64,000 nucleotides of DNA from Blasia pusilla (Eukaryota). Positions within the stretch are counted from its first letter, which is position 1, and each line of letters opens with the position of its first letter. A program made the position numbers and the translations under genes. The stretch spans positions 38,192,001-38,256,000 of the forward strand of contig CM114271.1 in the NCBI GenBank assembly GCA_050084515.1, given 5' to 3'. Under the pieces are notes generated by a model. It saw only the letters and a list, made by a program, of their open reading frames with translations. It was not told the origin of the DNA and did no database searches. This document shows, in pieces, positions 26,603-56,399 of the stretch.

Positions 26603-26825
<223 letters not shown>

Positions 26826-26852
26826 GGAGAAGTAACAATAAAGAGTCCAGGT

Positions 26853-28495: not shown

Positions 28496-28499
28496 ACAA

Positions 28500-31400
28500 T
28501 TGCGCAGAGGTTGAGATATGGGCCAAAACCGAATGTAAGAGGAGTCGGGTTGAGGGCCAAAAAGAGGGGCCCGGATGGTCTTTCCCAAAGGTGGGGGGAC
28601 CCCGGAGTTTCCCAGAAGTACTAGTAAGGGGGAAGGTCTCCAAGAGTGTTTGGGACTCGAACCCCACTTTGGGCACCGCGGGGCGACCCAAGGGCACGGA
28701 ACGGATCGTGAGTTTGGTGTTGGGCTTCAAAACCCAAACCAAGTTCAATAGAGGGATTTCAGAGATCCCTATTGGATTCCAACTTGCGACTCATATTTTT
28801 GAGTCTCGGTTAGGGGCTCATGCGAGGTTCGTTGGACAGTTGGGACCGCTAGGCGCTCAAACGCCGTTTCAAGTGCCTGGACTAACCAGAAAGTCTATCC
28901 CAAGTCTTGGAAGGCTTGCTCGTATAGGGAACCTAGGAATAAGGGAAGGTTTAGCTTCATGAGATACCCATTTGAGAACTCGGTGGGTTGGAAGGCCGCT
29001 TGACCCAAAGCCAGACTAACGTGAGTGCGTTTAGGTGCAAGTTGGCAATGAGAGCGTGTCTTACTGAACGTATGCTTCCGCAACACTAAGATTGACATTT
29101 AAGGAGAGTAGGCGCACGACATGTGGTATCAGAGCTAATCCTTGGTGAGTGAGAACTTGGGGTTGTGGGAGTAACTGGATGCTTGGGGAACACTTGAGGT
29201 AGCGGCGAGGCCCAGACTCTTGAGGAGGGACGCAAGAAACGAGGAGGAGATCTAAGTGTGGCGGCTTGAAGATGGCAACTGAGGGAGATGTACCACGGAA
29301 ACGTCGAGCCAAGCAACGCGAACCATGGGACGAACCGATGCCAGATCGGGAGCCAGTGGAGGAAATGCTGACTCCCAAGATGCCGAATATTAGACATGAG
29401 GGTGTCCCAAACGTAGACCCTCATGCAGAGCCAATGGCCCCAAACTCAAGTGAATCGGCCTTCTACGCCCGGATGTTGGATTATATGAAGATGATGATGG
29501 AACAAGTCCTCATGCAAAACAAGCAGATTGCATAGCTTGAGTCGGATAGAGCTTCGAGTTCTGGCAAAAAGCTCTGTAAGACAAACCTGCCCACGCCATT
29601 CACCAAAGTGGGGCGAGCTCGCAAGGTGAAAGATTTCCTTACGGAGATGGAATATTACTTCGAGGCGTAGAGGGCAGCAGAACAAGATAAGGTGGCAGTG
29701 GCGCTCACCTCTCTAAAGGATCATGCGCTATAGTGGTGGACAGCGCAACGGGAAGAATATCTGGCCGGCGGTTCACCTCTGAGTTGGGAGGAGTTCAAGA
29801 AGTTGATTGGTGACGGATTCACCCTAAAGTACCAAGAGATTCCCGATAGAGTAGAGCTCGTGCGACTACGGCAGACATGGCCCTTAAGCGCTTATGTGAG
29901 GGAGTTCATCACAAAGTTGAACTCCATTCCTAAGATGGATGAGGCATCGCAGATAGCGATCTTCATCGGTGGACTCAAACCAAGTGCATAGAAGGCCCTA
30001 TACAGAATGCCGGAGTTGCCGAACACCTGCGTGGAGCTTTTGAGGCTGGCAGAGCGGATTGGGGACGATGAGGTCCAAACACTGAAGCCCTTGGAGACAA
30101 AAACTTTTTCCAAAAGTTTGAAAAACAAAGGGGCACTCAAGAGGGGCTAGAGTGGGGTTGAGCGGGACCAAAGAGAGTCTCTCAACCGAGTAGCAAAGCA
30201 ACAGGAACGCCTTGCTAAGCCGAAGGGAGCACAACATCTGAAGGAAACGGCAAGGTGGTATGCTACAACTGTGGCGAACCTGAGCACATGGCAAAAGGAT
30301 GCTCCAAATCAAAGGTTAGAAATGGGAGTATGATTGCGTTAGCTGCTAAGCACTTGTCGGCAGGAGGTTTGGAGACCTCCCTTCAAGAGGACGCCCAACT
30401 TGATGTACCTAAGATCCAAAATTGCTGATCGCGATGTGATGATGCTCGTGGATACAGGTGCTTCGCACTCCTTCCTAAGCTCGAGAATCATGAAGGATTT
30501 GAGTGTGTCAACCTCTAAGGCAGACGAGCCCATTCGAGTAGGCTTTGCTGGAGGCAAGTCTCAACGAACTTCCAAGTTGGTACTCGGTTTGACGATAGGA
30601 TGCAGAGTATTCGAGTTGAAGGAGAATTTCACGGTGTGCCAGATGGATGGCATCGACGGAGTCTTGGGGAACACATTCTTGGATGCGTATGAGGTGGAGC
30701 TAAGGCGAAGGCCATTGAGGTTGAGCGTCTTAGTGAAAGGCAAACGGTTGCAAGTGAGGTTGGTTCGCGAGATGCCCGTGAGGAAAGAGTTGGTGAACGC
30801 CATTACAAGGAGGAGTTTGACCGAGTTGGAGGATGGATTCCTTTGCTTAATGAGACAAGTGGAGGACACCCCTAGCGAGAAACGCACGGATCAGGCCGCG
30901 GCTTCAAGGGGAATCCTAGGACTGCTACAAAGAGTTGTCAAGGAGTTTGGTGATGTCTTGACGAATGAGCTTCCGAACGAGTTGCCAGCGCATAGGGCAG
31001 TCGATCACAAGATAGAGGTCAATTCCCAGATCTCAACCACCTTCTAAGGCCCCATATAGATTGAATCAGGAAGAGTTGGTTGAGCTGAAAAAGCAGTTAA
31101 GTGAGCTTTTAGAGAAAGGCTACATTAGAACCAGCAAGTCATAGTATGGAGGGTCTTCTTTGTGAAGAAGAAGGATGGGAAGATGAGACTCTGTGTGGAA
31201 TACCGTGCGCTGAATAAAGTGACGATGAGAAACAATTACCCTCTTCCGAGGATCAATGACTTCTTTGATAGACTGTCAGGGGAAAAGTACTTTAGTAGGA
31301 TTGACTTGAAATCAGGATATTACCAGATTCGGATTGCTGAAGCAGATGTGGAAAAGACTTCATGTAGAACGAGATATGGCTCGTTTGAGTTTGTGGTGAT

Positions 31401-34400
31401 GCCCTTTGGTCTGTGTAAGGGAGTTTATCAATGTGGTGAACGTTCACCACATTGATAAACTCCATTTTTCATGAGGAGATGGATGAGTACGCGATCATCT
31501 ATATTGATGATATACTCATCTATTTGAAGTCACAAGGAGAGCACGCTCGACATTTGAGGGCGGTGTTGTCAAAACTAAGGGCGAACAAGCTGTATGCTAA
31601 TATTGACAAGAGTGAGTTCGGGTTGCGCAAGATCAAGTTCTTGGGTCAGGTGGTTAGCGAAGATGGAGTTAGTCCGGATATGGACAAAGTGAAAGCCATC
31701 GCTGAGTGGAAACCGCCTTCCACGGTGAAGGGAATGAGGAGGTTTATCAGCGCGGTGCAGTTCTACCAAACCTATATGAGGAACTTTTTGGGTATTGTAA
31801 GACCTCTCAAGGATTGGACCGCAAAGTATGCTAACACGACTTGGACCCAAGAAGTGAATGACGCGTTCAACCGAGTCAAAGAGATCCTATCGCTGGAGCC
31901 GGTGCTAAAGCTGCCAGAGTTCGACAAGCCGTTCGAGGTGAATACGGATGCTAGTGACTTTGCGATTGCAGGAATGTTGGTAGAGGAAGGAAGACCTATA
32001 GCCTATGAGAGTAAGAAGCTCAGCGACACCGAGAGAAGGTGGTCCACTCATGAGAAAGAGTTGTTTGCGGTGGTCCATTGCTTGAGGAAGTGACATCACT
32101 ATTTGGGACTTCACATGACTGGAGTGTTCACTGATAACGTATCGCTCAAGTATTTTGAGACCCAGGATTGAGTAACACCAAAAAAACTAAGATGGCATGA
32201 TACCTTGGCGTTGATGAAAGTGGAACTAATCCACAAGCCAGGGAAGGATAATGTCATTCCAGAGGCATTGAGTCACAAGGATGAGGATATGCCATCAACA
32301 ACACAGGTCTTGAGAGCAATGTTCCCTAAGTAAACAGATCTGGAAAGAAGGATTTGTGAGGGATACATAAAAGACACCCAGGCAAGCAAGTACCTAAGGA
32401 AGTTGAAGCAGGGCGAGAAGGTGGCCAACATAAGTTTGAGACATGGTTTACTAAGGTTCAAGCAGAGCAGGATCTATGTGGGCGAAGGCAAACTACGAAC
32501 CAAGGTGTTAGTGGAATGTCATGATGGACCCTTGGCAGGACATAAAGGGGAGAAATCCACGCTGGCTGTTCTGGATAAAAGGTTCTTTTGGCCCAACATG
32601 AAAGAAGATGTTGCTTAGTATGTGAAGACTTGCGTGACCTGTCAGGCGAGCAGGGTTTCTTATGCAAAGAAACAAGGCTTGTTGCATCCCTTGCCGATTC
32701 CGGACGGGCCCTTGCATAGTGTGAGTATAGACTTCATAACGAGTCTTTCAGAGTTAAGGGATACAACGTTATACTTGTGATAGTTGATAGGTTCAGTAAG
32801 TTGGGGAGACTGGTGCCGACGGTGGATTCAGCGACGGCCTATACGACTTCCCAACTCTTCCTAGATAGTTGATGGTGCACGCACGAATTGCCAAGGAGTA
32901 TTATTTCAGATCGGGATCCAAAGTTTACCAGTGCCTTTTGGAAACACTTGTTCAAGAGGTTCAAGACCAAGCTGAGTTTCAGCAGGGCCTTCCATCTGCA
33001 GACGGATGGGCAAAAAATAAAGGTAAACTCCCTCGTGAACCAATATTTAAGGAATTACGTGAGCGCGGACCAGCGAGATTGGGTGAAGTGGTTGAGTATG
33101 GCGGAGTTCTGCAACAACTCCACCAAACATTCTGCAATTGGAGAATCTCCGTTCCTCTTGGCTTATGGACGTGAGCCAGAAGGGCCTCTTGACCTAGCCC
33201 TTTCGAAGGGTACTACATCAGCACCGACTCGACAAGCGACGGTAGAAGGTTTGTTAGCGGAAATGCGAGGTCGAGAGGAGCAAGCAAGGAGAAACCTTGA
33301 AAAGGCTCAACTGAGGTACATGAAGCATGCTAACAAAAGTAGGTGCCAAGTGAGATTCCAAGTTGGAGAACAAGTGTGGTTGAATGTGAAGAATCTCACT
33401 CTTCCGAAGGAGTTTTCCTCGAAGCTATCGGCCAAGTATGCTGGATCGTATGTGATTAAAGCAAACCCGTTTGAGGATGTGTATACATTGGAGCTACCAC
33501 AAGAGTTCAAGATACATCCCACTTTCCATGTGTCATTTTTGAAGAAGTATCTTCAGGATAATGAGTGTCCCGAGCAAAGACAGGCGTTGAAACCACAACC
33601 GGTAATCGTAAGCGAAGAACCAGAGTTTGAGGTGGAAACCATCTTGCGTGCAAGGCGTAGGGCCAACAAGTACAAGTACTTGGTCAAGTGGAAAGGCTAC
33701 CATATGAAAGAGGCAACTTGGATTACGGAGGCAGATCTCGAACACACGCAAGAGGTGTTGCAAGACTTCAAACGGTTGCAAGGGAAGCACATGGAGAAGC
33801 AAGAGACATGACTTGTGCCATAGGAAGCTTGGGCCAAAAGCCGTTGTAACTAGAGCAGGCTAGTGTTGCAACAAAGGAATGCATGAATTTGGAGATTCGA
33901 TGCGTGTGTTATTTGCAATTTGTCTTTGGTAGGGCATGGCAATGAATAGTTCTTCATACGCTTAGGATGTAAGTCAAGAGGATAAACAAGGAGTATTTGA
34001 GGCAAGAGCTGGTATTCGGATAAGTACCTAGAACATGACTAAATGCCGGGCAACTAGCACTTGGGCTTGCCCTAGCATCGGCGGGGCATATCACTTTGTC
34101 TTGGGGCTTGGTATGATCTCAGTCGTGAGTGTATGAGTGAACTTAGTAACGCGCCTAAGTTGAATACGAGAACGACCCAAGAGTAGTACGAATTGTGGAC
34201 CGTCTAAACATGTAAGGTGTTTACAAGTTGTGAGCATAAGAAGTTTTAGTTAGCAACCTTAGTTAGCTTATTTTATAGGTTAGATCGGTTGAGAATTGGT
34301 CCACGCTCATCGAAGAGGGGATGCTAAATGATGTTAAAAGTTGCAAGCGACAACCTAAAACTTAAGCCAAAAGAGGGATTGCGGGTTAGCTATCATAAGG

Positions 34401-35493: not shown

Positions 35494-38400
35494 CCTACTC
35501 TCTCAGATTACCCGTGGCCTCAGCATGTCATCCTCGACCTCTTGAGGTTGTCCTCCAGTAACTTCTAGATCTGGCCAATCTATCCTAAAAGTCATGACGG
35601 TTGTCGTGCGCATACACATCGCTACACAACATACATCGGTGTCACCGAACATATACACAAACACGCACGATCCAATGCTAAATCATGGAATATACACAAC
35701 AAGACGAGAGGTACCAAAATATCTCCAATCGCCCCCCTAGATGGTGGTTAGGTCCCTCTAACTCTAGATAGTCATCTATCCCTACCTACCATGACATACA
35801 TCTCTTGGACGCTTAGAGCAAAAAGATCAGGCGCTCATGTGGCCCCATCCTTAGTCGCCTTCTTATCATCCATATCAGAGACACAAATCGGAATGTACAA
35901 CTACCTACTCTATGTACATGTGGGATATATCCATCATCCCTGAAGAACCCTAGTGAGAGGTGGCGTCAGACATGGCATATGCCACCCTCTCGAACACCCA
36001 TCATAAACTAGCATGATGGATGCACCATGGGCGGAACCACACCATATACATCATAAGCATGCAAAAACTACTACTAAGCTCGAATAAACTATACCGTCAA
36101 TGTTAGGAAGATGACATGGTGCACAATTACGCACATGGTCCTTCCAAACCATACCATCGTGTCCCTCTAGTAAGAGAACACCAGATGGCAAAATCTCACG
36201 GACTCTCAAGATGGTGCGCCTTGCAGTCACAGTCAAGATCGTGCCGTCTATTGCAAGTAGACATAGTCTCTTTGATGAAACCTCCAGATATTAGGTCGAT
36301 ATCCACCTCCTCCAATAGTCGCATACCTCAACGTATCCCAATGCTGCACAATCACCAAGTTCTCAAGCGCCATGGGCATCACTCTCCGAAACAACTCAAC
36401 ACTCTAAGAACATACTCGCATCCATACATCAGGGTAATCAAAGTTCAACACCTCACCAACATCTTGATGAATGGCCGTAGGTAAATCCGGCTCTCGGCCA
36501 GAAAATAGCAAGTACGGTGAGAAAGCCGCTAAGGATGCCTGCCTGCTGAATCTGTATCCCATTGCCAACCACGGCAACTGAGGTCCCAATCTTCTAGGTG
36601 ACCTTTCTGCAAGCCATACTTGCGCAATCCTCTCTTCACCGTCTACACAAACCTCTTCTCTAGTCCATCCGCCTCAAGATGATCACGTGAAGTGGTGCGG
36701 TGGTCGATCAGCGTCTGATCACACAAGGCTTGAAACTCCCCGGGAAACTCCGTACCTTCGTCTATCAACACCTCAACTGGTGCACCATAATGACTCAACA
36801 CTCAATCTAGGAAGGCATATGCTACTCCCTCACTCGATTTTTCATTCAATGCAACCAACTCTATCCACTTCGAGAAGTGCTCGACCATCACCAACACATA
36901 ACGACTATGGCGCTCCGTCAAAGGTAAAGGTCTTGCAAAATCTAATTTCCATCTCTAACCTAAACCCATGATCAAAAGTGGATGCAAGTGTGGAGTTGGA
37001 GCATTGAACGATGCCCAGACCTGATCACAAACCATGCACCTGGCAACAAACTATTGAACGTCAGTCTCCATGCCTTGCCACCAATATTGTATTTAGAGCA
37101 AGCTATACGTCTGCTTCACTCCAAAATGATCCAACTCCTCGTGGGCATGATACACCAAACGTGCTCTTTGTGAAGGATGAGGCACTACACGCACTCTACC
37201 ATCCTCCCAAACTCGTAACACATATATGCCCTCCCACCGGAACCATCTAGCTCGTTGTAGGATCCGATCCTGCTCTATAGCACCCACTATGCTCGTGACG
37301 CTGCCAGTACGTAGGTACTCCAAGACTACTCCATCGTCATGAATATCTCGGCCACCTATCGCCTCCACACGACCTCTAGATCTAAGGACTCTCCATCAAA
37401 CCTCGCCATCGAAGCCTTAGCAATCTGGCTCTCCATAGCCAACAAGCCCAAATAGGCTGATGGGTGCTATCCTGGTACCAACTCCTCATCACTCTCTCCA
37501 TGCCATCGAGCTCCAGTCGCATCTCGTTGACTCGAGCATGGGTTACGGCTCAAACCATCTGCATCCTGGTGGAGTGTCCTAGGTCCATGCACCACCTGAA
37601 AATCAAACTCTTGCGATAACAAAGCCCACCCTATAAGCTTTCATGTAAGCTTGTCGGACTCTGTCAACCGCTTAAGTGGCTGATGATTAGTAATAATGGT
37701 AAAGGGATTGCCGAATAAATAACACCTGAAATGTGCGACAGCCCACACTACAACCAAGCACTCACCCTCATACGAGCTATACTTTGCCTCTACAGCATTG
37801 TTCGAGCACTAGCATAAGTCACCACGAACTCTCTACCCTCATCATCATGCTGGGTGAGCATGGCTCCAAGCCCCAACATGCTCCAATTAGTATGCAATTG
37901 GAAAGGATGCCGCCTGATTGATCTCCTCAATATAGGCGCGGATGTCAATCTATCCTTGAGCAGCTGAAATGCTCTCCCCTGCTCATTCCCCCAATGACAC
38001 TTACTTCGCTTTCTCTGATTCGGCTGTGCTTTCCAGGCGCGGCGAGCGCTCACCCCCCTAATCCCCCTTGGTCAACAAGGTCAGCGGCTTCGCAATCAAA
38101 CTGAAACCCTTGACGTACCATCGATAGAAGTTCGCCAATCCTATGAATGCATAAACTAGATTCACATCTATAGGGTGTGGAATGCATGAAATAGCCTCTA
38201 CCTTCATCTGCTGCACACTAAGGCCCCCTGGGTATATCGTATGATCCAAGTATTCAATCTATTCGTAGAAGAACTTGCACTTGCTTGGATGTAGCTTCAA
38301 CCCATGTAACTGCAATCGTCGAAACACCTCCTCCAAATGTCGCTCATGCTCCTCAACCGTGGCGCTAAATACTATGATATCATCAATATAACACATAGCA

Positions 38401-39150
38401 AAATCCAGACCTGCCAAGATCCCATCCACGATCCTCTGAAACTCAGCCGAGGCATTCTTTAACCCAAATGGTAAAAATCGTCATTGATACAAGCAATCCT
38501 TCCCGTGAGGATCGACGCCCCAAAATATCGTCTTCTACTTCTCCTCCAATCTGATAGGCAGCTGATGGTATGCTGCTAAAAAATCTAAAGAACTAAATAT
38601 CTTTGCATGCCCAATAGTATCAAAGATCTCCTCAAGGATGGGCATGGCATACCTATCGGTCTTCATCTTTCGATTGATAGGTTAGTAATTTCCACACATC
38701 CGCCTATCCGTCCAATTGCCATTCACATTATTCTTGGCTCCAACCAAGTCTTGGCTCCTACTCTGAATCAGATCCCTCTCCATATCATTGTACATGTAGG
38801 ATCTTTGGAAGATCGGCGTGTCACTTGACAACTCAATGCGGATCCTTGGACCCTTCAATATACCCAAATCATGCATGCTAAATGCGAAACACCTCCTATA
38901 ACTCCTAAGAAATTGACGTATCCTGCGCCGCTCTCCTGTTATCAACTTAGGGCCCATATCTCACTCCCAAGTCTCCATCGTGACTACGGTAGGACTCTCC
39001 GGTGCGGGTGTCGGTGGTTGCTATTGTGCAACCCTGTCTGGGACAATAGAACTCGGCTACTCCCCTGCAACCAATTGCAAACTCTGATCTCCATGTGCAA
39101 TGCCCGAAACCACGCTCGATGTTGTGGCTCCCTGATGTGCTAAGGTTCTC
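35494..39150 (-). mobile_element. Truncated sister element of the split-repeat Ty3 family: RT-RH-IN-PHD, PPT, B', junction, partial A'
   Basis: Translations match 49391-52500 (GPKLITGERRRIRQFLRSY, HPFQLHTNWS, QLPWLAMGYRFSRQASL, WKDHVRNCAPCHLP). PHD remnant ~35890-36050, PPT 35729-35738, B' 35602-35728, A' 35494-35599. Confidence 0.9.
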
Positions 39151-44559: not shown

Positions 44560-45166
44560 GAGTATCCTGCATAGGTTAACTAGACTCGGTGGAATAATTC
44601 TGAACTCCTACTGGTGCAACAATCTGAGGATCATGGGTCGTGTTAGGAGAATTGCCGGGAAAATTGGCTTTGCTCGAAGTCCTCCGTTGTTGCTCTTCCT
44701 TGTGCTCTCCAGTCCAATGTTCCATTTCAACATCATCTTCATCTCTTCCAAGCCCCTCAGAATCAAAATGTTCAGTGTTGCCAATATGAGTATCCTCTCT
44801 CCCTTTGATGCCATGAATTCCAAATATCACATCCACCTCCTCTAGGTCCTCATCTTGCAAGTCAAGGTTATCTTCATGATTACCATCATGGTTTCTTGGA
44901 TGCAACCTAGATTCAGTGCCATCTTCTACTACTCTTCTAGCTTGTTATTGTCCATCCCTTTCTGAATAGTATTGCTCGTACAAGAGCACTTGTCTTGATT
45001 TCCGAGAAACACCCTTGTCTCCAAACCTTGAGTTTGTGTAGATGTAAACCAAATCCTTGGCACGCTCATTGGTCAATTTATTCCTATGCTTGTTGTGGAT
45101 GAGACCATAACTACTCCAATTTCTCGCCGCTGAAGAAGATGAAGCCACTTGTGCTTATATGGACTT
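44560..45166 (-). pseudogene. hAT transposase C-terminal part (dimerization domain and acidic tail)
   Basis: AQVASSSSAARNWSSYGLIHNKHRNKLTNERAKDLVYIYTN, the plant hAT dimerization motif. Continues the frame of 53264-53920. Confidence 0.9.
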
Positions 45167-45534
45167 TGTCATGACCATATGGATTATGTCGTAGAGTATA
45201 GTGTGCTAGTAGAGGCCATACCTTATGCAGGGCCGTAGTATCCAAGTAGAGATGCGGTTTCATACATAGGGTTGGGGGTTACTCAGTTGAGGGTGACTTT
45301 TCCAGTAGGGCCCGCTCTTAGGTTGGAGGATATAGTGTGGAGTGTACTCAAAGAACAGTTAGTTCTTTGAGTTGAGCCTGCTGCGTTGGGAGTTAGCCTT
45401 GGTAGTGAGTAGAGCTCTTGGCTGTGGTGGTTCCCGCAAGCTTCGACCTGGATTCTCCCATCGTGGAGTGGGTTTGGCTTGATTTTATGTGATTCTATAC
45501 GTGTTTTATGACAATAGGTCTTTCACGGATTTCA
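45167..45534 (+). repeat. Repeat A1 (368 bp)
   Basis: Same length as A2, with about 17 substitutions counted by eye, mostly transitions. Confidence 0.97.
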
Positions 45535-45546
45535 CTCAAAGAACTA
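45534..45546 (+). promoter_or_regulatory. Putative self-priming primer binding site
   Basis: ACTCAAAGAACTA at the A1 boundary is the exact reverse complement of TAGTTCTTTGAGT (45360-45372) inside A. No TGG-initiated tRNA-type PBS at the boundary. Confidence 0.75.
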
Positions 45547-45645
45547 GAGTAGATCGATGGTAGCTTCGATCGTGAATCAGTAGGATCTGGTTAGGGCTGA
45601 TTGTGTACTCAACCGTGGAGGTTAGGGCTGATTGTGTACTGAGCC

Positions 45646-47790
45646 GTGGCTTGGAAGGGGTTGTTTCAGCATTTGGAGGGACCACCCATGGACGATTACC
45701 ATGAGTTTAGGAAGGACCATGTTGCTGAGATCGAGGCGTGGAGACAATATTGGTCTCCAGGCTATGTGTCTATCACCCATGGTGGTATTGGTAGTAGTAC
45801 TCCTACTATGCCAGCCAGCCCGACGTTGAGTGGTACGAGTACGAGCTGGAGTGGGGGTACCAGTGGAGGTACCCAAGAAGGTACCATTGGGGGTACTAGT
45901 GGAGGTACTAATGCCCCACCATTGTTCACCCCGGTTGCAGAGTTCTTCAAGAGGTTGAAGAAGAGCTATCAGGGAGTGAAGACAGAGAAGTTGAGGAGTC
46001 TTCAGGAATTTGAGCGAAAGACTGGTGAGAATCTTTGTGAGGCATACACTCGTATGCGATGCTTGATTTCAGTTACCCAGGGTGTGATTGAGGCTATGGG
46101 AGTCCGGTTTTGGTATGGGATCTTGGATAGAGAGTTGCGCTGTAGGGTACATGATGCTACTCTTATGAGTGATGATTCATCCACATTGACTCATTTGTTT
46201 GCTCTATCTGAGAAGATTGAGCTTAACATGGTGGAGGAGAGAGTGGTGACATCCGCATTCAGTAGGGATACAATTACTACTTCTCGTGTTCAGCAGTCCA
46301 CCTCCCAGTCTCGTAGTAGTGGTGGTGGTAGTAGTAGTGGGAGTCGTGGGGGTTACACACGACCTCAGTCAGGTCCTAGAGGGACACTTGTGTAGAGACC
46401 ATTGCCTTCATTTGCTGCCCCGCAGTAAGGACAATCATGTTAGACATGTGGAGGTGATCATGTTAGGAGATTTTGTCCCCAAGAGGATGGGAGATGGACT
46501 TTGGAGGATGGGCCTCAGTCGGCCCCAACTCAGTGTGATCATTGCGGAAGACCAGGTCATCCTCGAGAGCATTGCTTTGATCTTCATCCAGAGTTGAGAT
46601 CATGACGCGGCTGTGGTGGAGTAGCTCCAAGAGGCCGAGGTGGTAGAGGTGGTAGAGGTGGACCAGTGGTTGGAGAGCCTACGGTGGCTACCCCTACCCC
46701 TACAACAGAGTCGCCTATGGTGCCGAGATTGAGCTTGATTGGAGCAGGAGTTGGCTACTATGGCTGGTATCCAACATAGAGCAGGTTCGGGAGCAGGGGC
46801 TTCCACCTCTTATGGAGGGGATGATCTCTCTTATATGGCGAGTGCAGCACAGGTTGAGGCATCAGATGCAGTTATGAGAGGAGCCACTCGAGCATCAGAG
46901 CCATGTGGTGCTACTATGGAGTTGGACCCATAGAGGGGTGAGGCTGGGAGGCAGGCTAGGCTTCCCCAATCATTCTTGTTGTCTGAGGTGCTTAGGAATC
47001 CATCCATGGTTCCTACGCAGCCTATTGAGCCTATAGTGGGGACTGAGGCATCTACATCACGTGTAGTAGACACGGATGCAGCATCCAGTGCAGTATTGCG
47101 GATGGCAACTTCAGTGTTGGGATTCCCATTGTTTTCGGCCACGGAGCTGATGGCTTTAGGAGTTGACTTAGCTCATGTATTTTAGCTAGCAGCCACGTTG
47201 TGTGAACGTGGGGGTGTTACTGCTACACGTGCTGAGGTGGATGAGGGTGTTGCGGTGGAGCAACCCTCTCTGTCACATGTAGCATTGAGTACCAGTGCTA
47301 CTTGGCAAGTAGCAGCGGCGAAGATGGATGCATTACCAGCCCGGCCAGCCATTGATCGTGAGAGGCTTACACCTGGTGTATGTATGTTGGACAACCAGAG
47401 TGGGATATTCCGATTGGTGAGTCCTACATGATAGCTGTATAGACCAGATAGAGTCTTGTTGGACTCTGGTGCCCAACCTTTGATGTTGGGAAAGGCGGCA
47501 TGTATTGATTTGGGTATTCGGAGGTCAGAGCTTGAGCCTTGCCCATTCTAGATTCAAACATCACTTGGAGGAGCCAATGATACGTCTCAATTCATGATAC
47601 GGGAGAAGTTGTCTGTACAGTTGAGACCAGATCATGCGATTGATAGCTCCCGGTTGGGAGTACCTGCAGTGGTCACATCAGCGGAGTCGTATGATGTACT
47701 AGTTGGAGGAGCAGTATTGTACCCGATGGGTTTTCAGATGGATTACTAGACTGAGATAACGTCTTATAGACCTAGTTGGCAGTCCGGGGA
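45646..47790 (+). pseudogene. Gag (with zinc knuckles) and aspartic protease of the split-repeat element
   Basis: Gag-like ORF 45646-46395, knuckle CDHCGRPGHPREHC (~46534-46575), protease VLLDSGAQPLML (~47453-47488). In-frame stops. Confidence 0.85.
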
Positions 47791-48179
47791 TGGATGTATG
47801 AGCCAGGTTCCTGTGAGATTTATTTATGGGGCTCGACCAGGAGGGTCTTCCCCAACGGTGTTAGCATCTGTGGCTGGTTTTAGTGGAGTAGTCACTTGGC
47901 CAGGAGACTTTTTGGAGGGTAATCTTTTTGCTATGGATTCTCCTGTGCATGAGGAGGTAGAGGAGATCCCTAGTTTTGCAGCAGTGGCATCCTCATCGTT
48001 GGATGTGCCACTTTGGAGTTCAGGCGGTGTACTACGGCAAGAGGCTGATCGCCTATTGCAGGAGGCTTGGTGTGAGGCTGTTATACCTCACGAGGAAGAG
48101 GAGGCCCCACGGCGTACTCCTACTTCTGGTCTAGTTGGGTTATCCCCTTTGGATACTACACCCATTGTATGGCAGTATC

Positions 48180-49140
48180 TGCCGGAGGGCATTTGTGTGT
48201 TAGATCTCTTTGGTGGGATTAGCACTGGTTTGGCTGCAGTGTGGCAGGCCGGTATTCCTGTGCGGAGATACGTGTATGTGGAGCGAGATGAGACGGCCCA
48301 GAGAGTCTCATCCCGACATATCGGTCAGTTGATGCGGAGATATCCTGAGTTGTTTCCGCCATCAGCTATTCGTGGGTACCAACGTGCTTTGCCGTCACAC
48401 ATTGCATTGTTGGGGGCGCAGGACCTTAAGAGGGTTGGTCCTGTGGATTTGGTGATTGCTAGATGGCCATGTCAGGGTCATACACGTGTAGGTCGTGGTG
48501 AGGGATTACACGACCCTAGATCTCGATTGTTTTGGGAGATGTTACGGATGTTACGACATCTTCAGGTTCATCAGGCACGTGCTCCAGCTTACATTCTGGA
48601 GAATGTTCCATTATTGGATGACACTCGGATCCGGATGATGGCGAGTGTTCATGAGGTGCGGTCTTGGATTGGACCTGCGGTGTTGTTGGATGCACCGCGA
48701 GTCGGCTCGCGTGCACATCGTCCACGCTTGTGGTGGACAAACTTGTTGCCTAGGGAGGTTCTACGTCAAGCATATGATGCAGTGTAGCGGGATCCTTGCC
48801 TTACAGTGGATAGTATCTTGGATATTGGGCGAATTTCTCAACTGGTGAGGGTTATTGATTGGTCATCCATGGTAGTGGTGAACCGTGTGGGCCAACCTAG
48901 GATGGCACTATCCACATTTGTGAGTTTTCCCTCGTCACATGCCTACAGGGAAGGTGGTTCTGGGCTTGTATGGGATTCTCATGTGCGACAGTTGGTGGAG
49001 CCTAACGCTGACGAGAGAGAGTGTGGGATGGGATTTGCTACTAGTGTGACAGCGGTTGCTTCCATTTCTGAGGCTTCACGACGTCATGTGTTGGGTCAGG
49101 CCATGGACCTAAATTGTTTGACTTGGATTTTGAGTCTTGG
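48180..49140 (+). pseudogene. C5 cytosine DNA methyltransferase domain (DNMT3/DRM-like) within pol
   Basis: Motif I VLDLFGGISTG, II VYVERDE, IV DLVIARWPCQ, VI YILENV, VIII AHRPRLWWTN, IX ERECGMGF, X RRHVLGQAMD. One in-frame stop at 48785-48787. Confidence 0.92.
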
Positions 49141-49390
49141 TATGGCCGAGCAGCGTTGACTTCGGACTTTGTCTGTGGGTCTTCCATCCCTTGTGATGAG
49201 CTCGATGGCTACCGGGACGGTAGAGGCATCGGATGGGGGTAAGGAGAGTAGTATTTTGCATCCTTGGAGTAAATGGGATGTAATGGCTGGGCATGTGGAG
49301 TTGGTTGCTCATGCTGGTGGAGGAGTTATTTGCTCAGATGATGGTATAGCTAAGGGTGTACCATCTTGTGAGGGGGTTGCGTAGCAACCA

Positions 49391-52300
49391 ATGGCGTCGT
49401 CCTCTCCCTCTAGTGTGCCAGTGGAAGAGACTTGGGAGCCATTACTTGGGCCCAAGCTTACGGGAGATGAGAAACGACGCTTGACACAATTCCTACGTGC
49501 TTATAGGAGTTTTTTTGCCTTTAGCATGAAGGAGTTGGGTGCTTTTGTTGGGCCTGGTATACGGATTGATTTGGCTGGTGATATGCCAATCTTTCGTCGT
49601 CCCTACCGATATAGTGATATGGAGAGGGACCTGATTCAGAGTAGGACGTTGGACCTTTTGGAGGCTGGATTAGTGGAGTTGTCGCATGGAGAGTATGCAT
49701 CAGCCACAGTCATGCCTGCTAAAAAGGATGTGCATGGCAACTACACGGATAGACGGATGTGTGGAGATTACCGTCCTATCAATCGACAGACCAAGGCTGA
49801 TAGGTATGCCATGCCTACACCTGAGGAGATCTTTGATGTGGTGGGACATGCAAAGATTTTTTGTACTTTGGATCTTCGGGTAGGATACCATCAGTTGTCG
49901 ATTCGAGAGAGTGACAAGGCCAAGACAACATTTTGGGGTGTCAACTCTCATGGAAAGGATTGTTTGTACGAGTGGAAATTCTTACCCTTTGGGTTGAAGA
50001 ATGCACCTGCCGAGTTTCAGAGAGTGATGGACAGGATCCTAGCAGGGTTGGATTTTGTTCGGTGTAACATTGATGATATCTTGGTGTTCAGTAACACGGT
50101 GGAGGAGCATCAAATACATTTGCAGATTATGTTTGAGCGGTTGAAAGCTCATGGTCTATGTTTGCATCAAGGAAAGTGTAAGTTCTTCCATGAAGATGTT
50201 GAGTATTTGGGTCATGTGATCTATCTAGGTGGTTTGGGAGTTCAGCAAGCAAAGATGGAGGCTATTGCACTTATTCCTTGTCCGATAGATGTGAGTAGAG
50301 TTCAGGCATTCATGGGATTGGTAAACTACTATCGGAGGTATGTGAAGGGATTTAGTGCTATGGCAAAGCCTTTGAACCAATTTTTGAAATCAGATGAGGA
50401 GTGACACTGGGGAGATGATCACGAGAGAGCTTTTGTGGAGCTCAAGGCCCAGTTGGTTGCTGTGCCTATCTTGAGGAGACCTATCAGATGGCGCCCATTT
50501 CAGTTACACACTGATTGGAGTAGGTTGGGACTTCGAGCGGTGTTGACACAACATTATGATGAGCACATGGAGTTTGTGGTGGCCTATGCAAGTCGTTCGA
50601 ATAATGTAGCAGAGTTGCGCTACAGTTCATATGAGGGAGAGTGCTTGGCAGTAGTGTGGGCTATGGCACACTTTAGGTGTTACTTGTTTGGCACACAGTT
50701 TACCCTTGTTACTGATCACCAGCCGCTCAAGTGGTTGATGGAGTCTGACAAGCTTACAGGGAAGCTTGCACGGTGGGCTCTTATCTTACAGGAGTATGAC
50801 TTCCAGGTGGTACATAGACTTGGAGTTGCCAACCTTGATGCTGATGGGTTGAGTAGGAACCCATATACTAGCCAAGAGGATGCAACTGGGGCTAGATGGC
50901 ATGGCGAGGTGATGAGGAGATGGTGCCAGGTTTGCATGCATCTGCCTTTTTATGTTGGTTAGGGGTGGACTCTAGTATGGAGGACCACATGACATCTTAC
51001 TCTAGTCAGAGGGTAGATGGTCAGCCTTTAGATCCTAAGGTTGGAGATGGTGGTATGGATTAGCATGATATTCATGATGATGCGTTGGTGTTGGAGTTCC
51101 TACGGACCAGTAGGGTGCCAGGCATAGTGAGTGCCAAGGAACGAGACCGTGTTCTTCAACGTGCTAAGAGGTATGAATTGAGGAAACACATATTCTCTGT
51201 GTGTGGGAGGATGGTAGAGTACAAGTAGTTCCGCATTTGGCTCAGAGAGAGTGCATTGTGCGACATGCCCATGAGGAGTTGGGACATTTTGGGGTAAAGC
51301 GTACGTATAGCTTACTCCTTGGTCAGTATTGGTGGCGTGGCATGCATACTAAGGTGTAGCAGTTGGTGTCACGTTGTATGGTTTGTGACCGGGTGAGGGC
51401 ATCATTCAATGCCCCTACACCACAGTTACATCCCTTGCCTATTATGGGGTTGGGTTAGCGTTGGAGTGTGGACTTTGCGGCACCGTTACCGTTGATTGTA
51501 CGACATATCGATATGTGTTGGTGATGGTGGAGCACTTCTCCAAGGGGATTGAGTTGGTGGCATTACCTGACAAGGCAAGTGAGGGAATGGCGTATGCATT
51601 TCTTGATAGAGTGCTTAGTCATTTTGGTGCACCAACTGAAGTACTGACCGACCAGGGTACAAAGTTTCAAGGTGAGTTTTAGGTCTTGTGTAACAAGGCG
51701 TTGATTGATCATCGGACCACGTCTCGAGATCATTCAGAGGCGGATGGTTTGGCTGAGCATGTGGTTCAGACGGTGAAGAGGGCATTGCGCAAGTATGGCC
51801 TACAGAAGGTGCATCTTGGAGACTGGGATATTCAGTTGCCATGGTTAGCCATGGGGTATAGGTTCAGTCGCCAAGCATCCTTGGCTTCCTTCTCACCTTA
51901 TTTTTTGTTATCGGCCGAGATCCGGACTTGCGGCAGTAGTCGTTGGAAGTCTAGTGAGGTGGTGAAACTTGATGACCCAGAGATGTGGATGAGAGTGTGT
52001 TCTCAGCAGGCATAGCTCTTTCAGAGAGTTATGCCAACAGCCTTTGAGAATCTTGCCATTTCCCAACACAGGGATATATTGCGGTATGCAACCATTCGGG
52101 GTGGAGGTTATCGACCATCGATTTGTAGGTTCCATGTGGGGGACTATGTCTATTTGCAGCAGATTATACCAACAACGTTGGATGTGACGGCAGGCCGCAC
52201 TATTTTACGAGTGCGCGAGGTGTTAGCTTCTGGAGTTCTCATGTTGGAGGGTCGTGATGGAGTTTTTTGGAAGGACCATGTGCGTAATTGTGCACCATGT

Positions 52301-52500
52301 CATCTTCCAAATGTGGATGGTACTATTGACCCAAGCTTAGCCATGATACGTGCTAGCTTGAGGTGCATGTTGTGTGGGTTTGCTGGTAACGCAACCCGTA
52401 TGTTGGTGTGTGATCGGTGTTCTAGGGGTTGACAAATGATGTGTTTGACTCCACGTATGGATGTTGTTCCTACTGGAAGGTAGGTTTGTCCTCGATGTAC
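49391..52500 (+). pseudogene. RT, RNase H, DDE integrase and C-terminal PHD finger
   Basis: RMCGDYRPIN, LPFGLKNAP, NIDDILVFS; FQLHTDWS, SYEGECLAVVW, LVTDHQPL; HEELGH..CxxC; VLTDQGTKF, DGLAEHVVQTVK; CMLCG...MLVCDRCSRG*QMMCLTP....VP.G.*VCPRC. Confidence 0.95.
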
Positions 52501-52667
52501 TTAGGAGAGGTAGATGACTTGATCTTTGCATGATATGGATTACAGATGTGCGACTAACGATGGGGCAACCTAGCACCCGACCTTCTGATTCGTGCATCCA
52601 AGAAGGTGTATAGCATGTAGTAGATGTATAGGACTACTTGGGAGTTAGAGGGACCTAACCGCCAGTT

Positions 52668-52677
52668 AGGGGGGCGA
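52668..52677 (+). promoter_or_regulatory. Polypurine tract
   Basis: AGGGGGGCGA followed by GT and the TG start of B1. Conserved in the relatives at 35729-35738 and ~2686. Confidence 0.8.
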
Positions 52678-52679
52678 GT

Positions 52680-53259
52680 TGTGGTACACTTGTGTTTATG
52701 GATGCTCTCGTCTATGTTATGTATGTATGTGAGTATGGTATATCAGCGATGTATGTTGTATGACGATGTGGATTCGCAAGACAGTTGTCATGACCATACG
52801 GATTATGTCGTTGAGTATAGTGTGCTGGTAGAGGCCATATCTTATGTAGGGCCGTAGTGTCCAGGTAGAGATGTGGTTTCATACATAGGGTTGGGGGTTA
52901 CTCAGTTGAGGGTGACTTTTCCAGTAGGGCCCGCTCTTAGGTTGGAGTATATAGTGTGGAGTGCACTCAAAGAACAGTTAGTTCTTTGAGTTGAGCCTGT
53001 TGCGTTGGGAGTTAGCCTTGGTAGTGAGTAGAGCTCTTGGCTGTGGTGGTTCCCGCAAGCTTCGACCTGGATTCTACCATCCTGGAGTGGGTTTGGCTCG
53101 ATTTTATGTGATTCTATACGTGTTGTATGATAGTAGGTCTTTCACGGATTTCAGTTGTGGTACACTTGTGTTTGTGGATGCTCTCGTCTATGTTATGTAT
53201 GTATATGAGTATGGTATGTCAGCGATGTATGTTGTATGACGATGTGGATTCGCACGACA
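52680..53259 (+). repeat. B1-GT-A2-GT-B2 terminal block
   Basis: B1 and B2 are 104 bp each with 4 differences. A2 is 368 bp. Both internal junctions read CA-GT-TG. Confidence 0.97.
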
Positions 53260-53263
53260 ACTT

Positions 53264-53920
53264 AGCCACAGAGCGCAATGTTGGTGCACCTTGACCGTGC
53301 ATGCTCCACCAATCAAAGGGGTCAAGTGAATCAACAACTTCCCTACCAAATTCATCCAAAAATATTTCCTGATGGTTCACAATGTTGCCCAACTCTTGCA
53401 AGCAAGTAGCCACATAAGAATTAGCCTCTATGACATTGAGGTCATGCACCCTCATTGCATAAAGTTTCAGATATTGTTTGAAATCTCTCATGCACTCAGT
53501 ATTTGAAGTAACGTCTTGAACACTTTCAAGAAGATTGTGAGGGGCGAAAATGTAGCCTATTGCCCACCGCCTATAAATAACATCGACCATATCTATAGCT
53601 CTAGACATTGTGACAAAATAACCGCGACGTCTTCCACCCATACTAGGCCATGGAGTTACTGGAAAAGAACAAGTCTCTTCCATTATCTCAAAAATACGGC
53701 GATAAATACGCCCCGTTGTTGCTTTATGACCATCACACTCGAGACTGTCACTCGGTGGTATGTCCGTAATCCCAGCAAACTTTTGTACAACATAAATAAT
53801 ATTTCCTATTTTTTGTGAACTTATTTGTAATGGAGTTGTCTCTTCCACTTCACTCAAAGGTCTCACTTGCCTTCTTTGTCTATTTCCCACTAGTACCCTG
53901 TTTCGGAGATCCCGTTGCAT
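53264..53920 (-). pseudogene. hAT transposase, region upstream of the dimerization motif
   Basis: DGHKATTGRIY, IGYIFAP, DPFDWWSMHGQGAPTLRSVAK. Joins in frame to 45166 across the TSD. Confidence 0.9.
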
Positions 53921-53922: not shown

Positions 53923-55164
53923 TGTCGTGTCGAGAGCCTTTCTTCGAGTAAGGGCAAGCCTTCTAGCTGCGGTAGATATGGCCGATGCAAGGTAAACTCT
54001 TTATGTATACTCTCCATTCTCTTACGACACGTATCACAAATGGAAGTGCCGAGGCGATCACTTCTTCGTAACATCGGACCCCAAAATTCCGAACTAAAAA
54101 GTTCCTATAAACTACTTTACGCTTGCACACGAGGAAGATAGCACAACTAGTGTTAAACCCTACTTAAGCAGCCCTATGGACATCCATGGATCGCTATATA
54201 AGGACATACAAAATACAATCCCATATCCTTCCATATATGACGATAGGAAGAATCACCGGAGTTGGAGATTGCATGACCTGGTTCATGAACGCCTCCCCAA
54301 AGTGATAAACTAAATAGCGAGTGAACCATTGCCTATCTACAAAGAGTACCTTGACATGATAAGGATTGAGGAAAGGAAAATCGGGCACAACTTGTGCTCC
54401 ACCCCAATCCATGTTTGGAAGACATTCTCTACTATCCTCAAGAATGGGCTTTGGCGGAATTATTCTCCCAAGAAGGATAATCTACTCTCATTGGGGGCCA
54501 AGACAATAACAAGCCAATACATTCATTATTTTAATATGACTAAACTCCTCTAAGATGACAAGCCTCTCATCTCCACACACACCACACTCTAGGAACCTCT
54601 TCAGGAATAGACCATGATCAAGTTACTCTCCCAAGAGGGATGATCCACTCTCATTGGAAGAGCAAGCAATCCCAAAACTATACACTCAAGAGTGATACGA
54701 GAGACTCAAGATGTGAAATAGAAGGTGATGAACCCTTGAAGGTCCCTCCTCTTTATATACTCACAAGAAAACCACAAGAGTACGAAATGGAGCTAATCTT
54801 ATCTTGTGCCACATGGCTTCCTCTCAAGATTTATCCAATCACATTTTGGCACAAGTAGATTTCTTTTTATCTCTTCCAAAATATCTTCTTTTACCCACTT
54901 GATATTTTCCAAATTATCCCAATTAACCTAGCCACCAACCAAGACTACTTTTGCTTTTCATTAAAGCACCAAGCTCACTACTTTACTTTTATAAAGTCAT
55001 CTTTTATTTATTACCTTTTTTCCTAAAGTTGGGCCCGCATAAAAGAGACACCATAAAGAGGTTTAAACATGGGAATTTTTTTTTCCTAAGCTAATTTACT
55101 TAATACTTATAAAATTCTATCTAATACTTAATGAGGAAGGAGTTTACACACTGGCTTTACGACA
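53923..55164. mobile_element. Solo LTR-like repeat, family C, copy 3
   Basis: TGTCGTG...TTACGACA, colinear with 25074-26356. Confidence 0.8.
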
Positions 55165-55430
55165 ACGCACCTGATGTGCACTCGTCACCATGCGAGACCT
55201 TGAATCGCCCAAAATCGGCACATTCTCCATAATGTATGATGGAGAATGGAACTGAGGCTCTTGTAAGTGTCGCAAGATCCGCATCATCTCCCAAAACAAC
55301 CTGAACCGAGAGTCAGCTAACCCGCTACCTCGTCCAACACTTGATTGGCCCTGACACGACCAACCTGCAATAACCAAGTCTATGGTCCCTACCCGCTGCA
55401 AGTCTTGCGCCCCTAGCAATGAAATGTCCC
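55165..55430 (-). pseudogene. Second, diverged retroelement-type DNA methyltransferase fragment (motifs IV-VI)
   Basis: LGAQDLQRVGTIDLVIAGWSCQG...RLFWEMMRILRHLQ...SYIMENV aligns without gaps to ~48410-48660. Confidence 0.9.
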
Positions 55431-56399
55431 TCAGTAGGGAACTCCATCAATCCAACCATCCTTTACTCTCACCGGCCACATTTTTTTGTCTAAGTTATCC
55501 TTATTCTAGTTCTGGTCTGGCTACGAGACGCTCATGACTTACACAAAAAGCAATATGCTTCTTGTTGGGGCTGACTCCATTTGGAACTTTGTGTACAAAA
55601 TAGACTACCTAGTGCACTTTACAAAGTTTCATCCTCTACATAGTGGAAGGAGTTTTTTTACAATAACCTGTCATTTCACGTTGCCTTTAGATCTGAATAA
55701 GAGATGTTGTTCATAAAGTCTTATTCTATTGTTGATGAGATTAAGAAGCATGTTGTAGCCAATTTATGGAGTGAAGTTCATGTTGGAGAAATTGTATTCA
55801 AAGTCCTCGATCTCATCCAACCATTTCTACACTTGGACATAACACCAGATATATACTATGTAGAGCAAGATCAAGTTGGTGCTCCAAGCTTGAAGATCAA
55901 TTTCATTCCCCTAGACCGCAACTTGGATTTTGAGAAGCGCAACTCTTTTTGGGATATCCGATCTCAATACCTACAAGCATGGCCCTACCAACCACAATCC
56001 GCATATCTACATAGCGAAAATTACTCCAACTATAGTCATCGCCTTTTGTACTCTAGCACCTCAAAAAAGACTAGCTACATGCTATGAGGATATTGTGTGC
56101 TATGCACATAACCTTGTCCACATGACCCTTACTTTCAAATCTTAGGTTGTCATAACAATGTATTAAAATTTTGATGTTCTGTTGTACGTACTTGCTATTC
56201 TCTCCTCCTCTCTTTTCTAGGATTGTATATGAAGTTGAGGTTCTCTCCTCACCATCTATTTCTTAGATCCTGTTTCCACAAGTACTTTGCTATGCAACAT
56301 GAATTCATTGCTCCAAATAAGGTCAAGCAATAAAATGACTTCTTGTTGTTTGCATTTACTACTTGTGTTTTTGCATATTTATTAACTCTCTAGGCATAC

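Follow-up and report, generated by a model that had tools for sequence, protein, structure and literature searches.

Retrotransposons that encode their own cytosine methyltransferase are described by de Mendoza et al. (PMC5890265), in the passages devoted to them, only from dinoflagellates and the charophyte Klebsormidium, and the acquisition is assigned there to an event "in the K. nitens lineage". According to the same passages, the Klebsormidium element (KnitGypsy-Dnmt3) has "the structure of repeats ... of a DIRS retrotransposon" together with Gypsy domains, an arrangement defined as A-coding region-B-A-B, and in the accompanying phylogeny the Klebsormidium element DNMTs are placed within the DNMT3 clade. 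Here we analyse a related sequence at positions 48180-49140 of a 64,000-nucleotide stretch of Blasia pusilla DNA (contig CM114271.1 of assembly GCA_050084515.1, positions 38,192,001 to 38,256,000 of the forward strand), which as a whole is called the window below. Very probably, this sequence is the DNMT3-type methyltransferase module of a dead Ty3/gypsy copy, and the module is a stable, selected part of a retrotransposon lineage that includes KnitGypsy-Dnmt3 and not a recently captured host fragment.

What is new is that the KnitGypsy-Dnmt3 lineage is common in liverworts and peat mosses, with transcribed relatives, and that a sister form exists in chlorophytes. A full-text literature search, with subscription papers and PDF supplements outside its scope, found no description of DNMT-bearing elements in bryophytes. 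The species table of PMC5890265 includes Physcomitrella and Selaginella, while Marchantia and Sphagnum are absent from it; one supplementary file of a 2025 re-survey names neither Marchantia nor Sphagnum; a 2019 opinion paper denies the presence of such transposons in land plants "such as tracheophytes"; and a 2026 preprint speaks, citing earlier work, of "streptophytes (Gypsy-DNMT3)". Since the lineage is common in liverworts and peat mosses and has its sister form in chlorophytes, the capture should be much older, or the element much more mobile, than has been reported. The finding also places DNMT-bearing retrotransposons in a tractable land plant, where the benefit of a transposon-borne methyltransferase becomes testable because Marchantia polymorpha carries many copies.

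The methyltransferase domain and its motifs are positioned in the window as follows:

48152-49156, + strand, predicted DNMT3-type C5 cytosine methyltransferase domain (Pfam PF00145, motif coordinates, best PDB matches to DNMT3A/B, similarity to K. nitens)
48200-48229, + strand, motif I, LDLFGGISTG
48269-48292, + strand, motif II, YVYVERDE
48452-48481, + strand, motif IV, VIARWPCQGH
48587-48610, + strand, motif VI, AYILENVP
48704-48742, + strand, motif VIII, GSRAHRPRLWWTN
48998-49036, + strand, motif IX, EPNADERECGMGF
49091-49114, + strand, motif X, LGQAMDLN

A preliminary description of the locus, made from the sequence alone, had claimed C5-methyltransferase motifs I, II, IV, VI, VIII, IX and X in unpermuted order, and all seven indeed lie in one plus-strand frame within 48180-49140, in the canonical order from I to X. 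The hidden Markov model check that it proposed gave a PF00145 match with an E-value of 3.4e-7 and 30.5 bits against a cut-off of 22, the aligned part comprising motifs IV-VI only. The frame of the domain (coordinate modulo 3 equal to 2) is, as had been stated, that of the downstream reverse transcriptase (RT) open reading frame at 49385-50404, and the position between protease and RT also holds, because the retropepsin active site LLDSGA lies upstream of the domain at 47456-47473. Judged on sequence, the motif and similarity evidence is far past chance (E 3.4e-7 for PF00145, 1.4e-11 for DNMT3A and 6e-54 for K. nitens).

The type of the domain was approached through solved structures. In a phmmer search of the PDB, the window domain matched DNMT3A best (E 1.4e-11), with DRM at 1.5e-6 and both bacterial enzymes and DNMT2 at E-values of at least 0.02. 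A profile built from twelve family members matched DNMT3A/B/C at E ~1e-20, tobacco DRM at 3.5e-8, DRM2 at 3e-5, M.HaeIII at 3e-7, M.HhaI at 3e-5 and the tRNA enzyme DNMT2 at ~9e-3, and it retrieved no DNMT1 chain from the PDB at E<=0.01. The domain is of the unpermuted type, because DRM aligns with it through its permuted C-terminal half only. An AlphaFold2 model of the DNMT of a Sphagnum-type relative (P0010), based on 40 aligned sequences, is confident over residues 1-325, with a mean predicted local distance difference test (pLDDT) score of 84.3 and a predicted template modelling (pTM) score of 0.82. When this model was compared by Foldseek, with near-duplicate chains of an entry omitted, all 31 matches listed (ranks 1-50) were DNMT3A, 3B or 3C, the best having an E-value of 9.6e-19, and the target-normalised template modelling score on DNMT3 catalytic-domain chains was 0.73-0.81. 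Both sequence profile and fold therefore agree with the earlier suggestion of a DNMT3-like enzyme, at least among solved structures. Pfam detected no PWWP, ADD or other host-type accessory domain in the window or in the relatives, the neighbours of the domain being protease and RT, and the ESM Atlas returned generic C5-methylase clusters only, one of them mostly of Streptophyta.

The domain is embedded in a Ty3/gypsy-type retroelement of the long terminal repeat (LTR) class, 8.1 kb long, which was recognised from stop-to-stop frames and Pfam matches at 45167-53259 on the plus strand. Its other coding parts are the following:

45643-46596, + strand, gag remnant with the 5' part absent and one internal stop (tblastn with residues 50-354 of Marchantia P0002, 60.5% identity)
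47186-47749, + strand, retropepsin-like protease remnant with LLDSGA at 47456-47473 (from the translation; colinear with P0002 and P0009)
49745-50221, + strand, reverse transcriptase RVT_1 (Pfam E 6.2e-28)
50492-50797, + strand, RNase H, RT_RNaseH (Pfam E 2.6e-34)
51243-51356 and 51503-51727, + strand, H2C2 and core parts of a DDE integrase remnant with a frame change between them (Pfam Integrase_H2C2 E 6.8e-11, rve E 2e-10)
52364-52498, + strand, PHD finger remnant after the integrase, with an internal stop (Pfam E 5e-5, 23.7 bits against a cut-off of 24; aligns with the PHD of P0042)

The gag remnant has no Pfam match, and the Pfam aspartyl protease was matched in the relatives P0026, P0032 and P0074 only, not in the window. 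Pfam found Integrase_H2C2 and rve in the window element and no tyrosine recombinase (phage-integrase domain); no chromodomain was found at the integrase C-terminus of this element, the PHD remnant standing in its place. The domain order of the family can be given as gag, protease and DNMT, then an in-frame stop, then RT, RNase H, DDE integrase and PHD finger.

That this copy is probably dead, as was proposed, is borne out by many stops and at least three frame changes in the element. The accompanying statement that it carries a stop was right as to its presence and short as to number, since the DNMT-to-RT stretch has three: TAG at 48785, TGA at 49157 and TAG at 49382. The first two, inside the DNMT domain (48785-48787) and just after it (49157-49159), are disabling, and relatives have sense codons there. 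Stops number 10 in the protease frame, 2 in the RT-RNase H part and about 12 in the integrase part. The copy also has no gag N-terminus: before 45647, RNA reads of relatives continue into gag sequence that it lacks. The DNMT domain is not open in the window copy; it is free of stops in three (L004, L006, L027) of the 24 copies compared.

At E<=1e-3, a word-indexed search returned 44 relatives, the top match having 78% identity; the named ones among them belong to Marchantia polymorpha (many loci), Calypogeia fissa and Sphagnum. The layout of the window element is shared by relatives in Marchantia, Calypogeia and three Sphagnum species, and the cluster nearest to the window is formed by Sphagnum jensenii and S. 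troendelagicum proteins. The family is also present at 51 metagenome loci. An exhaustive profile search over cluster representatives gave 11,966 matches at E<=1e-3, 2,525 at 1e-10 and 575 at 1e-30; the ten top representatives are all metagenome-assembly sequences, and among the 40 best ones scanned, the protein also contains retroelement domains in 25, while the integrase is followed by a PHD finger in 10. Pfam recognised the DNMT in 13 of 15 relatives, with RT and RNase H downstream of it in Marchantia P0009 and P0018 and in P0039, and DNMT to RT is spanned in one frame by 24 metagenome loci.

The preliminary description had considered that the domain could be absent from other copies of the family; instead, it is found in many copies from several land-plant species. 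A one-off capture, a transposon-disrupted host gene or a chance resemblance retains a vanishingly small probability and is refuted by colinearity, by the copies and by the selection data given below. The broken window copy, taken alone, would fit a dead fragment, and no other observation points that way; however, the protease-DNMT-RT colinearity recurs in Marchantia P0009 and P0018, in K. nitens P0292 and in the 24 metagenome loci, the E-values range from 1e-7 to 1e-54, and the ratio of nonsynonymous to synonymous substitutions (dN/dS) is ~0.2 on deep pairs.

Two domain layouts occur among the relatives: (a) gag-protease-DNMT-RT-RNase H-integrase, as in the window, and (b) RT-RNase H-DNMT-integrase-PHD. 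Among 299 collected proteins with a DNMT match, 67 have layout (a) and 170 layout (b), the remaining 62 being without assignment; the named hosts of layout (b) are the chlorophytes Haematococcus lacustris and Chlamydomonas eustigma. The integrase of the lineage ends in a PHD finger, not in a chromodomain (the window; P0042, P0049, P0057 and others). One relative, P0067, has a PTM/DIR17-like Tudor domain in addition to the PHD finger, and the C. eustigma protein P0282 combines PHD with a further SH3 and a chromodomain.

Two further remnants of the family were seen in the window. A more diverged relative at 35726-38987 on the minus strand, with ~72% nucleotide identity to the main copy, comprises RT, RNase H, integrase and a PHD remnant. 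Also on the minus strand, 16 kb distant at 55162-55443, is a detached DNMT fragment that covers motifs IV-VI and has 63% protein identity to Marchantia P0002. Because the main element sits between them, they may represent one older copy split by nested insertions.

Selection was assessed by the Nei-Gojobori method (NG86) with stop codons masked, using 24 in-frame DNMT copies, i.e., the window and 23 of the 51 metagenome loci, the others being left out for frameshifts, split matches or coverage below 85%. For the window against the other copies, the median dN/dS is 0.198 for DNMT (22 pairs), 0.152 for RT (12 pairs) and 0.184 for RNase H (10 pairs), and the stop-free copies L004 and L006 give 0.16 and 0.15 when compared with L027. 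These deep-pair values of ~0.15-0.20, similar to those of RT and RNase H, imply that the DNMT was kept about as strictly as the core replication enzymes. Neutral evolution of the domain, which had been named at the outset as the other outcome that would speak for a captured fragment, is not what the deep branches record: they show purifying selection, with a ratio of ~0.2.

Residue conservation was counted over 301 domain matches in the collected proteins P0001-P0301. The catalytic Cys is kept in 268 of 271 sequences, the Glu of the ENV motif in 275 of 277 and its Asn in 264 of 278; the two arginines of motif VIII are found in 267/273 and 268/270, and in motif X the Gly is present in 243 of 248 and the Asp in 243 of 245.

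The link to Klebsormidium was reached only through the DNMT region of an intermediate protein, P0039 (a 38%-identical match), and not with the window or P0042 as queries. The K. nitens protein KFL_009030040 (P0292, 1575 aa) carries DNMT at 312-575, RT at 770-930, RNase H and integrase at 1235-1401, in the same order as the window element, and a BLASTP alignment of the window DNMT with this protein extends over 306 residues, the stretch between motifs VIII and IX included, and shows 39% identity (E 6e-54). The DNMT tree has 92 rows and a midpoint root and is an IQ-TREE quick search with support from the Shimodaira-Hasegawa-like approximate likelihood-ratio test (SH-aLRT) only. One change divides layouts (a) and (b) in it, and 49 of the 50 (a) rows are grouped at a support of 91, one long-branch row falling outside. 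The Klebsormidium group and a bryophyte group of 19 rows (the window, Sphagnum-type, Calypogeia and Marchantia sequences) each have a support of 100. The named members of the clade enclosing the window copy are liverworts and Sphagnum only, apart from the Klebsormidium clade, and metagenome clades sit between the two. The RT-RNase H tree, with 65 rows, was rooted on the chromovirus of the window, a single very long branch that leaves the root uncertain; in it, the 13 (a) rows form a clade with a support of 100, the window joins Marchantia with a support of 100, and the Klebsormidium group lies inside the clade. The DNMT and RT trees thus agree on a single element lineage with one change of DNMT position. 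The kinship to the Klebsormidium retro-DNMTs, previously proposed, can thus be based on direct homology, the same domain order, membership of one clade in both trees and the A-coding-B-A-B arrangement in both elements.

Within the bryophyte part of the DNMT tree, the window is sister to the Sphagnum cluster, this pair stands next to the Marchantia clade, and the liverwort Calypogeia is outside. This order is unlike the host relationships and would reflect either old paralogous sublineages or transfer between bryophytes. We regard it as rather unlikely that the family came to bryophytes by horizontal transfer, between bryophytes or from algae, and not by unbroken vertical descent from a streptophyte ancestor. 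The transfer would explain why the window copy is about equally close (75-78% at the protein level) to the Sphagnum and Marchantia copies, why Calypogeia falls outside the group of the window, the Sphagnum cluster and Marchantia, and why metagenome clades separate bryophytes from Klebsormidium; however, old paralogous sublineages would give the same picture, and the synonymous distance between the window and metagenome copies is already ~0.7 in RT. The identity of the element is unchanged by this explanation.

Expression was followed in three RNA-seq raw-read runs with the same species label as the public DNA run in which the element is best represented, by collecting reads at least 95% alike on 44900-53500; no public RNA-seq runs are listed for this exact stretch. 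In the DNA run, 108,819 contig pieces fell on the stretch, so the family is highly repeated in that DNA. The RNA runs yielded 1645, 1500 and 1643 reads, and the depth inside the element was 2-107, the flanking bins reaching 0.1-0.3 (left) and 0.2-1.1 (right). For the DNMT, which is covered by four bins (48057-49204), the depth was 12-37, similar to the RT bins. The reads of relatives also skip 1002 nt of the integrase region, 51029-52032 (8, 12 and 20 reads), and 97 nt before repeat B1 (described below), 52628-52726; the ends of the skips are not intron-like (AG..TA, TA..TG), and they probably represent deletion derivatives, or expressed copies that differ from the window copy.

Several points weigh against the reading of a selected DNMT3-type module in an expressed lineage. 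The assignment to the DNMT3 type rests on ranking against solved structures and on the placement of the Klebsormidium relatives in PMC5890265. The conserved Gly ahead of WPCQ is replaced by Arg in the window copy (ARWPCQ), AGWPCQ being the reading of 10 of the 11 relatives aligned. Decay affects most copies, and the DNMT is free of stops only in the three of 24 mentioned above; over all pairs, its median dN/dS is 0.54 (274 pairs, interquartile range 0.40-0.65), beside 0.40 for RT (77 pairs) and 0.38 for RNase H (53 pairs), and the close pair L004-L006 reaches 0.91. The high all-pair values arise because most pairs are close decayed copies in which neutral post-insertion change dominates. In the DNMT tree, the split between layouts (a) and (b) has a support of 66 (91 for 49 of the 50 rows), and the trees are quick searches with SH-aLRT support only. 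As for the RNA, most reads are 95-99% alike and only 3, 10 and 13 per run reach at least 99%, so that the transcribed copies are close relatives and not the window copy itself; first mates are nearly all on the minus strand, which means sense RNA on the assumption of the usual stranded library type.

The remaining points of this kind concern catalysis. The residue before the catalytic Cys is Glu in 108 of 270 sequences (WECQ/FECQ) and Pro in 148, in both layouts; the Klebsormidium proteins have EHV in place of ENV; and, as reported in the yeast section of PMC5890265, the KnitGypsy-Dnmt3 domain gave no methylation in yeast, a result that its authors call inconclusive. These same three facts would suit a domain that no longer methylates DNA and acts as an RNA methyltransferase, or as a DNA/RNA-binding or structural module of the Gag-side polyprotein. 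We consider such a role improbable, because more than 95% of the domains, from very divergent members, retain the catalytic Cys, the ENV Glu, the arginines of motif VIII, and motifs I, IX and X, and fold and profile are far closer to DNMT3 than to DNMT2 (E ~9e-3).

The third stop in the DNMT-to-RT stretch is of another kind:

49382-49384, + strand, native in-frame stop TAG, followed by CAA CCA, between the gag-protease-DNMT and RT-RNase H-integrase frames

An in-frame stop occupies the same column in all 25 copies that span motif X to the RT start (the window and 24 loci), TAG accounting for 18 of them and TAA for 7. A conserved Gln-Pro directly follows the stop, and the codon after the stop is CAA in 23 of the 25. 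Protein models of Marchantia (P0002), Calypogeia (P0006) and the Sphagnum type (P0010) end at this point, where no stop exists in the Klebsormidium-type P0039 and P0292 or in the metagenome element P0050. Owing to the conserved stop, the coding region of the bryophyte elements is divided into two frames of the same phase, gag-protease-DNMT followed by RT-RNase H-integrase-PHD. Murine leukaemia virus expresses such an arrangement by stop read-through, and the conservation of the stop suggests programmed read-through in the bryophyte elements. The suggestion is drawn from this conservation and not from the read-through context of the tobacco mosaic virus type (UAG-CAR-YYA), which is exact in 4 of 25 copies only, most having TAG CAA CCC. 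If read-through is true, the DNMT would be made in Gag-like excess over RT and integrase.

The non-coding ends of the element are organised as follows:

45163-45166, + strand, left target-site duplication ACTT (same 4-mer at 53260-53263)
45167-45534, + strand, repeat A1, 368 bp, TGTCATG..TTTCA (351/368 identical to A2)
45535-45545, + strand, putative self-priming primer-binding site CTCAAAGAACT (exact reverse complement of 45361-45371 in A)
52667-52679, + strand, polypurine-like tract AGGGGGGCGA plus GT, directly before B1 (kept in L032 and L037)
52680-52783, + strand, repeat B1, 104 bp, TGTGG..GACA (100/104 identical to B2)
52786-53153, + strand, repeat A2, with GT (52784-52785) between B1 and A2
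53156-53259, + strand, repeat B2, forming the right element end ..GACA, with GT (53154-53155) between A2 and B2
53260-53263, + strand, right target-site duplication ACTT

A1 and A2 differ at 17 of 368 positions, B1 and B2 at 4 of 104. The element starts with TGTCATG and ends with GACA, and thus has TG..CA ends. The B-A-B block is also present in L032 and L037, which are complete with A1, and in L035, where A1 is off the contig. In all three copies that have both ends, 4-bp target duplications are located outside A1 and B2 (ACTT in the window, AAGG in L032, AATC in L037). Because the duplications bracket the whole stretch from A1 to B2 in three of three copies, the integrated unit is A...B-A-B and its insertion is of the integrase type; an ordinary LTR-LTR structure is ruled out by the same observation. 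Where B1 meets A2, the window, L032 and L035 have GACA-NN-TGTC, with the A side decayed to TATC in L037, and the GT-TGTGG found at the start of B1 recurs after the end of A2.

Within A1, AGTTCTTTGAG at 45361-45371 is complementary to the 11 nt that directly follow A1. The pairing is kept over 12 nt in L032 and 10 of 11 in L037, and the motif after A1 is conserved in five of five aligned copies, among which no tRNA-type TGG primer-binding site is conserved after A1. We suppose that this complementarity may be a Tf1-like self-priming signature; Tf1 is reportedly, from the work of Levin, a self-priming Ty3/gypsy element. An upstream partner also forms a hairpin inside A, at 45347-45371. Under the conventional scheme of reverse transcription, a cDNA of the form (B-A)...(B-A) would be expected; A2-GT-B2 resembles a junction of the two ends of such a cDNA, and the integrated form would then arise through the opening of a circle or concatemer by the integrase at the internal B/A palindrome. 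This combination of DIRS-like repeats, integrase-type ends and target duplications is an unusual end anatomy, which hints at a circular or end-joined intermediate.

For the function of the module, we tentatively prefer methylation of the element's own unintegrated DNA, a mechanism that seems quite possible although short of probable; self-methylation of reverse-transcribed DNA was proposed by de Mendoza et al. in their discussion of such elements, and the same source reports that the Dnmt3 of the Symbiodinium DIRS element methylated CG sites de novo in yeast (PMC5890265). The DNMT would be produced from the first frame in Gag-like amounts, RT and integrase needing read-through of the conserved stop, and with S-adenosylmethionine it would methylate the reverse-transcribed DNA of the element before or at integration. 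Since the arrangement of the integrated copies resembles an LTR element permuted by way of a circle, the substrate would probably be episomal, either circular or end-joined. Each new copy would then carry its mark on arrival in the genome, and the PHD finger of the integrase would choose the chromatin.

A different use of the same enzyme, to which we attach a clearly lower likelihood, is that it acts in trans on chromatin and methylates the fresh insertion or its neighbourhood, not the free cDNA; the purpose could be self-restraint of copy number, or a CG-methylated, gene-body-like state that escapes other silencing, and the PHD finger of the integrase would bring the complex to particular histone H3 tails. 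Several observations agree with it: the DNMT belongs to the presumably abundant frame on the Gag side, ahead of the conserved stop; a PHD finger follows the integrase, as a remnant in the window and also in 10 of the 40 top relatives; the fold is DNMT3-like; and the CpG observed/expected ratio of the element is low (0.54, compared with 0.67 for the window). This evidence fits methylation of the cDNA equally. When the preferred mechanism is joined with the other proposals, the composite is more doubtful than its parts and unlikely to hold in every step: an ancient lineage reaching from green algae to land plants would carry its own epigenetic writer (DNMT3-type) and reader (PHD) and be transcribed in bryophytes, produce the DNMT in Gag-like amounts before a conserved leaky stop, prime itself in the Tf1 manner and, through a DDE integrase that cuts GACA-NN-TGTC, integrate a circle-derived, permuted cDNA, while the DNMT methylates the episomal DNA so that copies arrive pre-marked.

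Elsewhere in the window, a Ty1/copia RT is located at 27833-28726 on the minus strand (RVT_2 E 2e-66), and the chromovirus used above for rooting, which has a protease, an RT, an SH3 domain and a chromodomain, lies at 30343-33811 on the plus strand. A gag-like stretch at 15495-16177 (+) is very diverged, with a 31% match to the gag of the Marchantia DNMT element. A GC-rich (~60%), Ser/Pro-rich open frame of 842 codons at 6411-8939 (+), which belongs to no Pfam family, may be a host gene or a composition artefact, and a long (CA)n microsatellite at 26604-26830 reads as a poly-(Thr-His) frame. Rfam gave no match in the window, and Pfam gave none in its three candidate host open reading frames.

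In comparison with known systems, plant DRM is a distant homologue over motifs I-IV, but it is circularly permuted, and its C-terminal part aligns with the N-terminal part of the window-type domain. Host DNMT3 of animals and plants (3A/3B/3C structures) provides the best profile and fold matches and shares the canonical motif order and the small target-recognition region, while the family domain lacks PWWP, ADD or any N-terminal reader, is one module of a polyprotein and shows 19-23% identity in structural alignments.

DIRS-like elements (Ngaro/PAT type; SymbioDIRS-Dnmt3) resemble the window family in the A-coding-B-A-B repeats, and SymbioDIRS also has a Dnmt3; they differ in using a tyrosine recombinase, whereas the window family has a DDE integrase, TG..CA ends and 4-bp target duplications. 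Tyrosine-recombinase elements are not known to make target duplications. The likeness to self-priming of the Tf1/sushi type lies in the 11 nt after the 5' repeat that are complementary to a sequence inside it, the RNA 5' end at 45361-45371 being only presumed. The chlorophyte and metagenome Gypsy elements (H. lacustris QJQ45_005506, C. eustigma CEUSTIGMA_g8544) have a homologous DNMT (30-40% identity) and RT, and a PHD finger after the integrase; in them, however, the DNMT follows RNase H and does not precede RT, and they are on the other side of the split in both trees.

The closest system is KnitGypsy-Dnmt3, which shares with the window family the Ty3/gypsy domains with a DDE integrase, the unpermuted DNMT3-type domain upstream of RT, the A-coding-B-A-B repeats (on the Klebsormidium side as given by the figure legend of PMC5890265 alone) and purifying selection on the DNMT, for which the corresponding passage of that paper reports Ka/Ks <0.2. 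The differences are that the hosts here are land plants (liverworts and Sphagnum), that a conserved stop separates DNMT and RT in bryophytes (25/25) while the K. nitens-type P0292 and P0039 are one protein, and that the bryophyte copies have ENV where Klebsormidium has EHV.

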